Source: Nitrospinales bacterium
GTDB taxonomy: Bacteria; Nitrospinota; Nitrospinia; Nitrospinales; VA-1
NCBI GenBank assembly: GCA_965262115.1
Contig: OZ253496.1
Coordinates: 928,001-992,000, forward strand
DNA length: 64,000 bases
Reading direction: 5' to 3'
The notes under the pieces are model-generated. The model saw only the letters and a list, made by a program, of their open reading frames with translations, was not told the origin of the DNA and did not search any database. This document shows, one piece after another, positions 24,932 to 30,479 of the stretch. The number at the start of each line of letters is the position of its first letter. Within the stretch, counting starts at the first letter, position 1. The position numbers and the translations under genes were made by a program.

Positions 24932-26290
24932 TTAGACCGTTTTTTTATACAGCCGGTGAATTTTTAGAATTTTGTTTGTCAATGATTCGATGTCCTCAGC
25001 AATAACCCGAATCATCTCTTCCTTTCTTATCCCGCCCAGATCATAAATGATATCTGGCACCGAGCCGAAATCCATAAGCGCTTTTTGGGTGCCCCATTCC
25101 AGGGAAGACCCTTCCCGAACTCTTATATTTTTAGGTTCCTCCGCCCTGTCAAACGAAGCAATCTTAAACCGGAGGCGTTGACATATTTTTAACAGCGCGT
25201 CCGTATATTTAATATTCATGACAGCGCGTTTTTCTGGATCAAAACGCATGACCGTCAAAACAATATTGGCGACATGCCGGGAACCGCCAAACTCAGGTTC
25301 GGCACCCGTGAAAATATCTTCCCCATTTTTGATAAGGCGCCCTGGGATGGCGAGAACATCCTCATGATTTTTGGCATTTTTTAGCGCCAACCCGATATTG
25401 GTTTGAACCTCAGGAACCAATGACCCAATTCTTTCTTCCCGGAATACCCGGATGGCCCGATTCATTCCTTCTAAAGCCTGGGCTTTTTCATTTTCCCTGT
25501 ACAGTGCGGATAGCGGCTCCACACTGGCCTTGCCGTTTCCAGAAATCACTTCTCCAAGAATAGCCCGTCCAATAAAATCCTTGGCTTCTATTACCGTCGG
25601 CAAGATTTGTCTGCCCAAAGCCAGTCCAGCGGTAATTGCTGATGAAAAAACACAACCTGTTCCATGGGGATCCGATTCCGACAATCGCTCTGAGCTTAAA
25701 ATCTCTATACCATTGTTATCCAGAAACAGATCTTCCGGTTTTCCTTTCAAGTGGCCACCCGTGAGCACCACCGCCCGTACTCCCGATTTAAGAATTTTTC
25801 GTGCCGCACGCTTTCTGTCCGCAGTTCGGCGGATTTTTATTCCGGATAATATTTCAGCTTCCCTGATATTTGGGGTCACAAGACGCGCCAGAGGGAACAA
25901 GCGCTTCATCATCATCTCCACCCCGGATGGGGCGAGCAGTTTTTTCCCTGAAGAAGAAAAAATGACGGGATCGACAACCAGGTTTTTAACCCGATAACAT
26001 TTGAGCAGGGAGGCAACCCGATCGACAATCTGCTCATTGCCCAGCATTCCTGTTTTTACGGCCTGGCATTTATTATCCTCAAAAATGGATTTAAGCTGGC
26101 TTTCAACAACACCAACTGGCAAATCATTCACAGCCTGGACTCCCAAAGTATTCTGGGAAGTGATGGAGGTGATCACTGTTTTGCCAAATACCCCAAGAGC
26201 AGAAAATGTTTTAAGATCGGCTTGAATGCCAGCGCCGCCTCCGGAATCCGAACCGGCTATTGTCAAGGCTACTGCAATTTTGTCAGACAT
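24932..26290 (-). CDS. thiD: Bifunctional HMP(P) kinase ThiD / ThiN-type thiamine-phosphate synthase
   Basis: AGSDSGGGAGIQAD and HGTGC, plus a C-terminal PEVQTNI..PGR..FGGSRHVA..D.GG..KE domain. Confidence 0.9.
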   Translation of the reverse strand: MSDKIAVALTIAGSDSGGGAGIQADLKTFSALGVFGKTVITSITSQNTLGVQAVNDLPVGVVESQLKSIFEDNKCQAVKTGMLGNEQIVDRVASLLKCYRVKNLVVDPVIFSSSGKKLLAPSGVEMMMKRLFPLARLVTPNIREAEILSGIKIRRTADRKRAARKILKSGVRAVVLTGGHLKGKPEDLFLDNNGIEILSSERLSESDPHGTGCVFSSAITAGLALGRQILPTVIEAKDFIGRAILGEVISGNGKASVEPLSALYRENEKAQALEGMNRAIRVFREERIGSLVPEVQTNIGLALKNAKNHEDVLAIPGRLIKNGEDIFTGAEPEFGGSRHVANIVLTVMRFDPEKRAVMNIKYTDALLKICQRLRFKIASFDRAEEPKNIRVREGSSLEWGTQKALMDFGSVPDIIYDLGGIRKEEMIRVIAEDIESLTNKILKIHRLYKKTV

Positions 26291-26377: not shown

Positions 26378-28198
26378 TCAGGCAACGGTAACGGATTTGG
26401 CAAGAGATCGGGGTTTGTCGATATTGCGCTTCAGAGAGGTGGCGGTAAAATATGCAAACAACTGGCCAATGACCAACTGAATAAGAGGCGCCGTCAAAGG
26501 AGGTACTTTGGGAAGGATCAATTCTTCACTGTATAAATCCTGGTTTTTCCCCTGCTCGCTGAAATGAATTCCCAGAACAAAACCTGACCGGGCGCGAATT
26601 TCCTCTATACAATGCATCGTGGATTCATAGAGTACTTTATCTTCAGGAGGCGGAACGAACACGATTGAAAACACATCGTCATCAATCATAGCCAGTGTTC
26701 CGTGCTTTAAAAATCCACCGGGCATTCCTTCTGCATGAACGTAGGCAACCTCTTTCATTTTTAAAGCTGCTTCCAAGGCAATAGGATAATAAACCCCCCG
26801 CCCTAAATAGAGCCAGTTGAGGCTCCCGGAATATTTATGGGCAAGGCGATGAATAAAACCGGATCGCTCGTTTAAAATTCCCTGGATAATTTCAGGGAGC
26901 TCCTGCAAAGCCTGCAGGTGCTGGTTATAGGTTTTTCGGGTGATCACTTTCTTTTTTAAGGCAAGCTTCATAGCCATCACCGTAAAAATTACCATTTGCG
27001 ATAACGCGGCCTTGGTACTGATCACACAGATTTCAGGTCCCGATCCTTGGAGAACTACTTTGTCAACCAGCCTGGCAATGGAGGAACCCATGACATTGAC
27101 AACTGCTGCTGTCCGGGCTCCACTGGATTTGGCATACTTCAACGCCGACAAGGTGTCAAAGGTTTCACCGGATTGCGAAGCGGCAAAAACCAGAGACTGC
27201 TTGTTCACATTGGCCAATGCCATGAACTCATCAGAACTGATGGAAGGAAAAAACTCCTGCACCAACTGCGAAAAAATATATTTGGCATATTTAGCAACGT
27301 AAAAAGTAGTTCCCACACCCAGCAAATAAGAGTTCTTAGATTTTGCAAATAAATCAACAACCTCATCCAGCCCTGAGGCCTCCAGATCCAACGCATTAGA
27401 AATGGTTTGAGGCTGTTCATAAATTTCCTTGAGCATATAATGAGGATAGCCCCCCTTTTTGGAAGTCTCACTGTCCCATTCAATTTTAGTGATGGCTTTC
27501 GTGACTTCGTCCTTGCTCAAAATGCTTTTCACGACATAGGTATCCCGGGAAAGAATGGCATATTCTCCATCATCCAGAATCACAGCATTTTTGGTATGGT
27601 CGATGAAAGCGTTGAAATCGGAACCAATAAATTTAATCTCATCACCGATACCGAGCATCAGTGGTGATTCCTTTTTCGCGCAAAAAATCTGATCGGGAAG
27701 ATAGGAGGAAATAAATGCTATCGCATAGGTTCCTTCAATGAGGCCCAGCATCTTCAAAAAAGCTTTTTCCACGTTACGACTGCGCTTGTAAAACTTCTCT
27801 AAAAGGTGGGCGAGAATTTCAGTATCGGTTTCCGAAGAAAACTTGAAGCCTTCTTTTTTTAGCTGGTCTCTCAAAGGACGGTAATTGGAAATGATTCCAT
27901 TGTGAACCACAGCAAAATTACCATCGCGGGAGGTGAGCGGGTGGGTGTTCTTCTGCGTCACTTTTCCGTGCGTGGCCCAGCGGGTATGGGCAATGCCTAT
28001 CTTGCTTTTCTGATCAAGGACATTGTGTTTGCGATAAAACTCTTCCACACCTCCAATGTCTTTTTTAATGATGAGGCGTGTTTTGTTCATCAAAGCAACG
28101 CCGCAAGAGTCATAGCCTCTGTACTCCAGGTTCCTGATCCCCTCAAAAAGAAGTTCGGATATATTTTTTAATCCGACAGCACCACTAATTCCACACAT
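26378..28198 (-). CDS. glmS: Glutamine-fructose-6-phosphate aminotransferase
   Basis: MCGI, HTRWATHG, SQSGET, LKHG and PRSLAKSVTV. Confidence 0.97.
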   Translation of the reverse strand: MCGISGAVGLKNISELLFEGIRNLEYRGYDSCGVALMNKTRLIIKKDIGGVEEFYRKHNVLDQKSKIGIAHTRWATHGKVTQKNTHPLTSRDGNFAVVHNGIISNYRPLRDQLKKEGFKFSSETDTEILAHLLEKFYKRSRNVEKAFLKMLGLIEGTYAIAFISSYLPDQIFCAKKESPLMLGIGDEIKFIGSDFNAFIDHTKNAVILDDGEYAILSRDTYVVKSILSKDEVTKAITKIEWDSETSKKGGYPHYMLKEIYEQPQTISNALDLEASGLDEVVDLFAKSKNSYLLGVGTTFYVAKYAKYIFSQLVQEFFPSISSDEFMALANVNKQSLVFAASQSGETFDTLSALKYAKSSGARTAAVVNVMGSSIARLVDKVVLQGSGPEICVISTKAALSQMVIFTVMAMKLALKKKVITRKTYNQHLQALQELPEIIQGILNERSGFIHRLAHKYSGSLNWLYLGRGVYYPIALEAALKMKEVAYVHAEGMPGGFLKHGTLAMIDDDVFSIVFVPPPEDKVLYESTMHCIEEIRARSGFVLGIHFSEQGKNQDLYSEELILPKVPPLTAPLIQLVIGQLFAYFTATSLKRNIDKPRSLAKSVTVA

Positions 28199-28214
28199 AC
28201 TTATTTTCGACCTG

Positions 28215-29420
28215 TTATTTATGTTTTACGGAGTAGCATGCGGGAAGGGTAATCCCGGGGGCAACAATCGTTCCGGGCTGCAGGGTATTTCCGGCCCCAA
28301 CAACAACTCCATCACCGAGAAAAGCACCCAATTTTTTCATTCCCGTCGGCATAGGCCGCTTGCAGTTTTTCACAAAAATCGGTTTCCAGTCTATGTCTCG
28401 ATTCACAGTCATGCACCCTGCTCCCATATCCACATTTTCACCCAACACACTGTCTCCGACAAAAGAAAGACGGCCTATCTGGGAATTTTCCATCACCACG
28501 CAGTTTTTTAATTCCACACCGCTACCTACCGAACAATTTTTTCCAACAGAGGTGTAGCTTCTGACAAGAGAGTTATTACCGATATAGCTTCCTTTCCCAA
28601 TGCAACAAGGCCCTTCCAGTACGGCGCCAGATTTAATCACCGCTCCCGCCTCGACCCGGACGACTCCCTGCAGGGTCACATTAGCTTCCAGTGTTGCGTC
28701 TTTGGCGACAGAAGTCTCCTGCCACGAATCCATGATTATCTTGTTCGCCGTCAGAATTTCCCAGGGATAAACCACATCCAGCCATTCATCTTCCCACATG
28801 GAGGCACGTAGTCCTTCTCCCGCCACCACTTTCTTCAACGCCTTCTCCATGGAATTCCCTGAAGATTCCAGCAACTGAAAAAAATAGGCTGGCAATATAA
28901 ACACTCCGGCCAGAACATAATTGCCGAGCTTGTTGCCTTTGGGTTTCTCGATGATTTTTGTGATTTCCATACGCGCATTCAGGAAAACGTTTCCAAACAT
29001 CTGATTGGAAGGCGGCAGGCATATGGAGGCCACCGGACATTTGAATGAATGAAAGGATTGCTGAATTTTGCTGAAGATATTATTCGCCGTCAGGATATCT
29101 CCATACGCAAGCAGGAAATATTCACCCGGGAGTATTTTATTTTTGACCTGCATCACCGCATGACCGATTCCCAGCTTGCGTTTTTGCTCCACGTGATGCA
29201 GATTCAATCCATTGTGACCCTGCTGCTGAATCCGTTCGATTAACTTTTCTTTCTTATGTCCAGCCACCACAAAGATGTCGTTGATTCCTGCACTTTTAAG
29301 CAAACCGATGGTATTATCCAGCAGAGTGCGCCCCGCAACTCCAATCATGGAGATGGGCCGGGTTTCTGAAAATGGGCTGAGATGGGTGCCTTCACCCGCA
29401 ACTAGGATTATGGCTTTCAT
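28215..29420 (-). CDS. Archaeal-GlmU-like sugar-1-P nucleotidyltransferase/acetyltransferase homologue with degenerate motifs
   Basis: NTase fold (LVAGEGTH, YGD, EKP) plus left-handed beta-helix (VELKNC, GRLSFVGDS, KKLGA). Confidence 0.8.
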   Translation of the reverse strand: MKAIILVAGEGTHLSPFSETRPISMIGVAGRTLLDNTIGLLKSAGINDIFVVAGHKKEKLIERIQQQGHNGLNLHHVEQKRKLGIGHAVMQVKNKILPGEYFLLAYGDILTANNIFSKIQQSFHSFKCPVASICLPPSNQMFGNVFLNARMEITKIIEKPKGNKLGNYVLAGVFILPAYFFQLLESSGNSMEKALKKVVAGEGLRASMWEDEWLDVVYPWEILTANKIIMDSWQETSVAKDATLEANVTLQGVVRVEAGAVIKSGAVLEGPCCIGKGSYIGNNSLVRSYTSVGKNCSVGSGVELKNCVVMENSQIGRLSFVGDSVLGENVDMGAGCMTVNRDIDWKPIFVKNCKRPMPTGMKKLGAFLGDGVVVGAGNTLQPGTIVAPGITLPACYSVKHK

Positions 29421-29454
29421 TTGAAAAAATCCTGATTGGGAAGGATAAAGTTAG

Positions 29455-30207
29455 TTACGAAGGCTGACGATGATCGACCAACAGTCGTTCCGCCCGGTTT
29501 AAATCATCTGGAGAATTAATTCCCAGTACCTCGTTCGCATCCTGGGTCTGAATCGCCTGAACGGGATACCCCTTTCGTACCAGATATTCTATTGTATCGG
29601 TCAAATAGTATTCTTTCTGAATATTTTTGGGGCTAACTTGCTCTAAGACCTTGAAAAACAACCTATTGTCAAAACAATATACTCCGGAATTGAATTCGTC
29701 AACTTTTTTCTCAATTTCCGAAGCGTCCTTGAGCTCCACGATCTTTAATATTGAACCATTTCCATCACGAATGATCCGGCCAAAATCATGGCACCCACTA
29801 CTTTTAAGGGTCAGCACCGTGCACTTGGCTTCGATCCTTTTATGCCCTTGAACCATTTGCAACAGGGTATTAGGCCGGATCAAAGGCATGTCCCCACATA
29901 ACACTAAAACCAACCCGTCAAAGTTCTCCAATTTCGCCTTGGCTTGTTGCGCGGCATGGCCCGTACCCAACTGTTCTTCTTGGACCACGAACTCAACCTC
30001 ACGGTCAGCAAAGGCTTCTCGCACCTGATCAGCCTGATGTCCCACCACTACTATTGTCCGAGTGGGATTCAATCGAGAAGAAAGATCAAGTACATAGTGA
30101 AGAAGAGGATGACCAGCAACGGGAAGAAGAACTTTGGCAAGAGAAGATCGCATGCGGGTGCCTTTACCCGCCGCTAAAATGATGACCGCTAGGTCCTGCT
30201 GCTGCAT
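29455..30207 (-). CDS. glmU: Stand-alone GlmU N-terminal (GlcNAc-1-P uridyltransferase) domain
   Basis: LAAGKGTRM..S..KVL, QLGTGHA, GDMP, EYYLTD and GIN; ends at 250 aa with no beta-helix. Confidence 0.85.
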   Translation of the reverse strand: MQQQDLAVIILAAGKGTRMRSSLAKVLLPVAGHPLLHYVLDLSSRLNPTRTIVVVGHQADQVREAFADREVEFVVQEEQLGTGHAAQQAKAKLENFDGLVLVLCGDMPLIRPNTLLQMVQGHKRIEAKCTVLTLKSSGCHDFGRIIRDGNGSILKIVELKDASEIEKKVDEFNSGVYCFDNRLFFKVLEQVSPKNIQKEYYLTDTIEYLVRKGYPVQAIQTQDANEVLGINSPDDLNRAERLLVDHRQPS

Positions 30208-30479
30208 TTAATCTTATATTCGGCGATTTTTTTTCTTAACGTGTTGCGGTTGATTCCCAAAATATTCGCGGCCTTAGTCTGATTGCCGCTGGTTTCCTTC
30301 AGAACGATTTCAACCAGCGGTTTTTCAATGCCTCCCATGATCAACTCATGCAGATGCCCATTGTTTTTTTCATCCATCGAGCCGACATATTTCCGGATGG
30401 ATTTGTCCAGCCATTTTTCAAGAAAAATGGTAACTTCTTTATGGGGTTTTTTCATAGCAGGAGGATTCATTAAAGCCAC
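30189..30479 (-). CDS. fis: Fis-family HTH protein
   Basis: IEKPL..VL....GNQTKAA.ILGINRNTLRKK. Confidence 0.88.
   Translation of the reverse strand: MALMNPPAMKKPHKEVTIFLEKWLDKSIRKYVGSMDEKNNGHLHELIMGGIEKPLVEIVLKETSGNQTKAANILGINRNTLRKKIAEYKIKCSSRT

Follow-up and report, generated by a model that had tools for sequence, protein, structure and literature searches.

A 64-kb window of contig OZ253496.1 (the whole stretch of DNA that was analyzed, whose numbering is used here unless a genome coordinate is given) from a Nitrospinales bacterium, the genome of which is a single contig that is 93.9% complete, contains four open reading frames (ORFs), all on the minus strand, in the order fis, a gene for the N-terminal half of GlmU (half glmU), a gene for a 401-amino-acid (401-aa) GlmU homolog, designated here the RLSF protein, and glmS. 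The gaps are 34 nucleotides (nt) between half glmU and the 401-aa gene and 16 nt between the 401-aa gene and glmS. An earlier note on this DNA had read the same gene order, and our coordinates agree with it. Here we examine the place of these genes in the synthesis of UDP-N-acetylglucosamine (UDP-GlcNAc) and the possible role of the RLSF protein. The features are as follows.

30189..30479 (minus strand): fis-family regulator, first gene of a likely operon; its 3' end overlaps the start of half glmU
29455..30207 (minus strand): stand-alone GlmU N-domain, 250 aa, predicted N-acetylglucosamine 1-phosphate uridylyltransferase with intact motifs
28215..29420 (minus strand): RLSF protein, 401-aa archaeal-type GlmU homolog in which the standard catalytic residues of both domains are replaced
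29352..29384 (minus strand): nucleotidyltransferase signature of the RLSF protein, with His13...Ile23 where Arg and Lys are expected
28401..28472 (minus strand): acetyltransferase site of the RLSF protein, with Arg317, Phe320, and Asp331 in place of His, Tyr, and Asn, and with Asn340 kept
26378..28198 (minus strand): glmS, belonging to a separate clade found together with the RLSF gene; it has Cys2, KMKE, KHG, and KSVTV
26711..26713 (minus strand): Phe496 of GlmS, within the clade signature GF[LM]KHG (usually GE[LM]KHG)

The 401-aa protein scores 298.7 bits against TIGR03992 (archaeal bifunctional GlmU; cut-off, 292.1), which confirms the archaeal-type identity proposed in the earlier note. 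Its closest relative of solved structure is ST0452 from Sulfolobus tokodaii, which it resembles in length, in two-domain fold, and in passing the TIGR03992 cut-off. A structure model built with 50 diverse sequences gave a predicted local distance difference test (pLDDT) score of 92.7 and a template modeling (TM) score of 0.86 to ST0452, and supersedes a previous model from 29 close sequences (pLDDT, 63.7).

Residue equivalences were taken from an alignment with ST0452 and an enterobacterial GlmU of 456 aa. In the uridylyltransferase site, Arg13 and Lys23 are replaced by His13 and Ile23, and neither signature residue remains. In the acetyltransferase site of Escherichia coli GlmU, the His is the base, and Arg, Lys, Tyr, and Asn residues are phosphate and amine ligands. 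His363, Tyr366, and Asn377 of this site are replaced by Arg317, Phe320, and Asp331 in the RLSF protein, whereas Arg333, Glu349, Lys351, and Asn386 are retained as Arg287, Glu303, Lys305, and Asn340. According to the available text of PMC4619583, K26A and H374A each abolish one of the two activities of a bacterial GlmU, and H374 of that enzyme aligns with Arg317. The alignment thus bears out the earlier observation that both active sites are altered while the downstream Asn is kept, and adds three changes that had been missed, in the Asn377 equivalent (Asp331), the Arg of the NLRxD motif, and the SxRGExE hairpin. In comparison to ST0452, the protein keeps Arg287, Glu303, Lys305, Asn340, and Lys363 together with Gln79, Asp108, and Glu158. 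It does not have Arg13, Lys23, His308, Tyr311, Asn322, the Arg of the NLRxD motif, or the SxRGExE hairpin, each of which is either substituted or missing.

These changes are characteristic of a family. When 75 dereplicated bacterial RLSF proteins were compared with 75 canonical archaeal-type proteins, the former had lost the equivalents of His, Tyr, Asn377, and Ala380, the NLRxD Arg, a Thr in the LGT motif, and the SxRGExE hairpin; the Asn377-equivalent position was variable (D, H, K, Q, or N). They kept Gln79, Asp108, Gly143, Glu158, Lys159, Arg287, Glu303, Lys305, Asn340, and Lys363, and have an Arg fixed where ST0452 has His. Arg287, Lys305, Arg317, Asn340, and Lys363 are near-invariant. 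The protein studied here likewise retains phosphate- and nucleotide-pocket residues and has gained the invariant Arg. Judged from the residues, this pattern of loss and retention would suit binding without standard catalysis.

An orthologue-level match to the RLSF protein (best expect value [E], ≤1e-59) was found in 108 of 120 Nitrospinota genomes, and the best 120 homologue matches by word index were all close Nitrospinota copies. Arg317 and Phe320 are invariant in 49/49 full-length loci found by similarity, a tally from which one interrupted congener locus (L008) was excluded. In eight congener pairs, the ratio of nonsynonymous to synonymous substitution rates (dN/dS) was 0.05 to 0.20 for RLSF, 0.06 to 0.08 for GlmS, and 0.08 to 0.60 for half GlmU. 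Of 41 Nitrospinales loci, one has kept Arg13, and most have Ile, Gln, Asn, or Leu at position 23. The substitutions are therefore phylum-wide rather than unique to this genome, and the suggestion in the earlier note of conserved specialization, and not decay, holds. That the gene is a decaying relic has practically no chance of being correct: the interrupted locus L008 speaks for it, but the 108 orthologues, the low dN/dS, and the 49 intact Arg317/Phe320 pairs refute it.

The RLSF gene is linked to glmS across several phyla. When species-representative genomes were scanned with GRLSF[IV]GDS, 299 relatives were found, and the 80 that were kept come from Nitrospinota, SAR324, CSSED10-310, Schekmanbacteria, Acidobacteriota, Gemmatimonadota, Cloacimonetes, and Asgard archaea. 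In bacteria, glmS lies directly downstream of the full-length RLSF gene in 128 of 133 loci (some genomes being counted twice); two of the remaining five are at a contig edge, and three (L049, L106, and L142) are true exceptions. Throughout Nitrospinales the RLSF gene is also beside half glmU. At six loci (L044, L045, L047, L048, L050, and L051) half glmU is elsewhere while the RLSF gene stays with glmS, and among 22 further bacterial genomes half glmU was found in only 5 (not in the other 17) and full GlmU in none. All 22 have a GlmS that is 44 to 56% identical to that of the host.

The linked GlmS proteins form 30 rows on one side of a single long branch (Shimodaira-Hasegawa-like approximate likelihood ratio test, 100; quick tree, midpoint root). 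They read GF[LM]KHG in 21/21 parsed sequences and mostly GVGTT, in contrast to GE[LM]KHG and ACGTS in the outgroup, and two genomes among the scan relatives in which the two genes are unlinked still carry a GlmS of the GF[LM]KHG type. No RLSF gene was found upstream of an outgroup glmS in 80 loci, many with short flanks. In the reverse direction, 4 of 401 genomes from another phylum proved to have a linked-type GlmS, and the three of these that were new, probably of one clade, all had an Arg-type gene upstream of glmS; a metagenome scan for linked-type GlmS returned only outgroup GlmS, which served as control. The RLSF and GlmS trees, based on 66 pairs, have 25 of 29 supported splits in common and nowhere conflict, which shows joint inheritance, not contact. 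The RLSF protein thus follows GlmS, and not half GlmU. Other degenerate archaeal-type GlmU homologs, reading SFSFIGD or PASVVQD, lie directly beside ordinary glmS genes (L369:4855-6081, L398:1792-2997, L383, and L391), a hint that glmS has gained a disarmed GlmU neighbor on more than one occasion.

The predicted enzymes of the pathway itself are encoded by separate genes. Half GlmU matches positions 2 to 237 of the 452 positions of the GlmU profile, ends at a real stop codon, and retains LAAGKGTRM..K, GD, VE, and YLTD, in accordance with the earlier description of a half enzyme with intact uridylyltransferase motifs. No full-length glmU was found in the host genome, and none of 120 Nitrospinota genomes has a full GlmU above the cut-off, while the N-half is present in 109. 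A gene outside this locus (C1:1815341-1816132 of the host genome) encodes a stand-alone beta-helix acetyltransferase of 263 aa with the motif HFNYIGD..N..ANL, directly after a large glmM-like gene. This acetyltransferase is present in 107/120 Nitrospinota genomes, adjoins the glmM-like gene in all 30 fetched loci (all from the family of the bacterium studied here), and has intact His/Tyr/Asn/Asn in 38/38 pattern-parsed loci (of 55). The earlier claim that acetylation of glucosamine 1-phosphate is not conventionally explained is therefore wrong for this genome, because an intact stand-alone acetyltransferase is encoded elsewhere in it. The split pathway which that note had put forward stands, with no full glmU and with intact stand-alone genes for the uridylyltransferase and the acetyltransferase, whose substrates are predicted.

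Separate N-half and C-half GlmU genes in the absence of full GlmU are known in other bacteria (bioRxiv 10.64898/2026.06.23.733835; PMC4358021, in their available text), Capnocytophaga GlmU being one such example of separate halves (PMC4358021). The split pathway, with its predicted substrates, thus adds one more case to an arrangement already known and is not new in kind. In the genome studied here, set against these reports, a half GlmU of bacterial type is combined with a stand-alone C-half of archaeal type, and the available text of the two reports describes no third, disarmed copy; the strings "Nitrospin" and "archae" do not occur in the text of the preprint (10.64898/2026.06.23.733835).

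Several further observations concern these genes. The glmM-like ORF (G000:C1:1816205-1818652; L001:8206-10653) is 815 aa long as called, compared with 660 to 720 aa in its relatives, and only its first mutase domain is recognized, far below the GlmM cut-off. Genes of this kind lie beside the stand-alone acetyltransferase or, in other phyla, after glmS, and the substrate would be glucosamine phosphate or N-acetylglucosamine phosphate. A few kilobases from the stand-alone acetyltransferase are two ORFs that resemble transposases and, by eye, look IS3-like and IS110-like (G000:C1:1810398-1812459). Candidate matches to the stand-alone acetyltransferase are present in genomes G241, G259, and G275. 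In a 97% complete congener (G054; L021:1501-3048), fis directly precedes the RLSF gene, and no N-half match was found in the genome; its RLSF protein lacks Arg13 and Lys23, which leaves its uridylyl step unexplained. Arguments from missing genes can therefore fail here. A protein of the eukaryote-type UDP-glucose pyrophosphorylase (UGPase) family PF01704 is encoded in the host (L224; G000:C1:628976-630343) and in 10 of 25 other genomes searched, with no match in 14 control genomes. We did not count these proteins as a uridylyl source of the NagU or UAP1 type, though they might be one: all 11 proteins carry KLNGG(L/M)GTSMG, which we take to be a UGPase-type motif.

With the gene content, the changed residues, purifying selection, an intact fold, and the tie to a single GlmS clade established, the RLSF protein may well be a ligand-binding regulator or subunit of the adjacently encoded GlmS, its ligand binding being predicted from sequence. 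Among the hypotheses of the earlier note, a pseudoenzyme regulator of GlmS is best supported, by context only. In this mechanism, GlmS, the GlmM-like mutase, the stand-alone acetyltransferase, and half GlmU would carry the flux to UDP-GlcNAc, and the RLSF protein would trimerize through its beta-helix. Its N-domain, with Gln79, Asp108, Gly143, Glu158, Lys159, Asn167, and Asp215 kept, would bind UDP-GlcNAc or a related nucleotide, and its C-domain, with Arg287, Glu303, Lys305, Asn340, and Lys363 kept and Arg317 gained, would bind a phospho-amino sugar. Ligand occupancy would then alter contact with the cognate GlmS, giving feedback on the first committed step. The family likely originated from an acetyl-dead GlmU that still uridylylated, an activity seemingly lost only where half GlmU is present, as here.

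Two known systems offer models. GlmR (YvcK) of Bacillus subtilis binds UDP-GlcNAc and stimulates GlmS by direct action, UDP-GlcNAc causing its release, according to the available text of PMC7525490, and by analogy could serve as a working model for the action of the RLSF protein on GlmS. GlmR, however, belongs to the unrelated family PF01933, to which the RLSF protein has no match and of which no member was found in the host genome. Human GMPPA, which has the same nucleotidyltransferase plus beta-helix architecture as the RLSF protein, is a noncatalytic feedback inhibitor of its paralogue and binds the end product (PMC11228364, available text). GMPPA regulates its own paralogue, whereas the RLSF protein tracks an unrelated upstream enzyme, GlmS; half GlmU, the candidate for the active paralogue that a GMPPA-type system would have, is present in Nitrospinota but was not found in 17/22 further carriers or in 81 SAR324 genomes. 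We propose that the RLSF protein would work like GlmR with the build of GMPPA, being a member of neither family.

Several points weigh against a regulator of GlmS. A Thr-to-Ile change in the sugar lobe and the lost hairpin make the bound ligand uncertain. The agreement of the two trees may reflect shared descent only, and a gene for a pathway enzyme, too, would be expected to be linked to glmS. None of 24 archaeal RLSF loci is adjacent to glmS. In SAR324, no GlmU or N-half was found in 81 genomes (E, 1e-30), a stand-alone acetyltransferase was found in only 22 of the 81, loci from this group keep Arg13 in 26 of 30 (Lys in 2) and Lys23 in 30/30, and in two single-contig genomes of unstated completeness (G189 and G192) the RLSF protein is the sole GlmU-like beta-helix protein found. 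This raises the possibility that the RLSF family is catalytic, and the invariant Arg317 could be too. The N-domain is probably, on sequence grounds, an active uridylyltransferase in SAR324, since Arg13 and Lys23 are kept and no other GlmU was found; the acetyl step there is unexplained.

The full-length archaeal-type gene is present in 70 of the 81 SAR324 genomes, 17 of which also have a stand-alone acetyltransferase and 53 of which gave no match to one. In 30 fetched SAR324 loci, the RLSF gene always precedes glmS, and Arg317 is present in 29. The other beta-helix proteins of G189 and G192 are LpxA, LpxD, and DapD-like or carbonic-anhydrase-like proteins, and their other nucleotidyltransferases are GalU-, ManC-, or MurU-like. 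A catalytic His that had migrated to position 331 in SAR324 was considered and rejected (top residues, H10/K9/Q6/R2). The RLSF protein of G189 (L440:10649-11854) reads GGLSFVED, so that the otherwise invariant Arg and Gly are replaced, either a real change or an assembly error, and no GlmU or stand-alone acetyltransferase was found on its single contig. G192, a 1.6-Mb genome, has a MurU-like nucleotidyltransferase and, by eye, a short ORF like the C terminus of RapZ near a murA-like gene (L463:6769-12342), possibly a salvage route. In a set of 52 proteins, position 13 lacks a basic residue in 18/19 with half GlmU versus 7/33 without it, an association that was not upheld when phylogenetic independence was required (2 pairs, P = 1). 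Because there are only two independent pairs, the tie between half GlmU and loss of Arg13 is suggestive only.

In 12 archaeal RLSF genomes searched, GlmS is outside the identity range of the clade, and a second archaeal-type GlmU gene is present. The Asgard RLSF-type genes (L082-L099, L104, L113, L114, L126, L129, L139, and L154) are away from glmS, and some of them keep Arg13/Lys23; at Hodarchaeota-type loci, the gene lies between radA/cdc6 and the gene for a class I lysyl-tRNA synthetase. We looked for a link of the Asgard copies to a pathway, eIF2B-like or other, but their neighbors (lysS, radA, cdc6, PPDK, fibrillarin, and others) have nothing in common.

We also tentatively consider a multi-phylum hexosamine module, a possible but not favored scheme in which the GF[LM]KHG GlmS clade would need, or be governed by, a GlmU-derived partner that reads an amino-sugar phosphate through a His-to-Arg beta-helix pocket. 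The SAR324 protein would then be the missing UDP-GlcNAc enzyme (a uridylyltransferase and perhaps a His-free acetyltransferase), and the Nitrospinales protein would be a pure sensor.

Among the alternatives to a regulator or subunit of GlmS, the one that survives best, though we consider it unlikely, is that the C-domain is a working noncanonical N-acetyltransferase, possibly for glucosamine 6-phosphate straight from GlmS. The His-to-Arg and Tyr-to-Phe changes would move the position at which phosphate is bound, with the Arg taking the place of the base by lowering the pKa of the amine. The near-invariance of Arg287, Lys305, Arg317, Asn340, and Lys363 fits such an enzyme, as do operons of the order RLSF-glmS-glmM-like, the 53 of 70 SAR324 genomes mentioned above, and the beta-helix lists of G189, G192, and G204, which include no stand-alone enzyme (G192 has LpxA, LpxD, and one GNAT match). 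In contrast, the equivalents of His, Tyr, Asn377, and Ala380 and the NLRxD Arg are lost family-wide, Nitrospinota keep the intact stand-alone enzyme in 107/120 genomes, and G189, without a stand-alone enzyme, has lost the Arg (GLSFVED) unless its assembly is in error; the congener G054, without half GlmU although its RLSF protein lacks Arg and Lys, also shows that missing-gene arguments are fallible. The Arg-based acetyltransferase suggested in the earlier note is thus not needed in this genome, while the 53 SAR324 genomes without a match keep it in consideration.

It is improbable that the protein is an enzyme of changed specificity in amino-sugar metabolism, acting on another sugar phosphate or nucleotide or as a phosphatase or pyrophosphatase in a side reaction. 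Metal- and nucleotide-pocket residues are kept and the sugar lobe is remodeled in all groups, as this would require, but the state of positions 13 and 23 in Nitrospinales (Arg13 in 1/41; mostly Ile, Gln, Asn, or Leu at 23) fits relaxed, not redirected, catalysis, and glmS is the sole pathway gene common among the neighbors.

More doubtful still is a noncatalytic role, as subunit or scaffold, with the two halves of the split GlmU, in a GMPPA-like hetero-oligomer with half GlmU or the stand-alone acetyltransferase. The adjacency to half glmU throughout Nitrospinales, a fold shared with GMPPA/GMPPB and VTC1-KJC2, and the precedent of GMPPA as a noncatalytic inhibitor of its paralogue (PMC11228364, available text) would agree with it. 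The scaffold for half GlmU proposed in the earlier note is nevertheless argued against, because the RLSF gene remains with glmS where half glmU is elsewhere (the six loci) or was not found (17/22 genomes and 81/81 SAR324 genomes), and the stand-alone acetyltransferase was likewise not found in most SAR324.

As to the surroundings of the operon, the Fis ORF matches PF02954 and scores 72.5 bits against NF001659, below the cut-off of 99. A ThiD-ThiN fusion (24932-26290, minus strand; best match, NF006346, under its cut-off) begins 87 nt past glmS and is conserved there across Nitrospinales. Promoter and terminator scans gave numbers close to chance level, Rfam had no match around glmS (window positions 24 to 33 kb), and neither GlmR nor RapZ was found in the host genome.

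GlmS catalyzes the committed step to the precursors of peptidoglycan and lipid A. To our knowledge, few controls of GlmS have been described, namely, a ribozyme, RapZ with small RNAs, and GlmR. In the literature outside subscription journals, we found no paper that brings GlmU together with a pseudoenzyme and glmS, none that does so for SAR324 and GlmU, and nothing relevant on Nitrospina and GlmU. For annotation, the label "bifunctional GlmU" in Nitrospinales probably does not denote that enzyme, and the route of SAR324 to UDP-GlcNAc without a recognizable GlmU is a direct, testable question. If our proposal is true, GlmS would have a further control, by a disarmed GlmU that is passed on together with a single GlmS clade in Nitrospinota, SAR324, and several candidate phyla; under the multi-phylum scheme, the transition from enzyme to regulator would be traceable in abundant marine bacteria.

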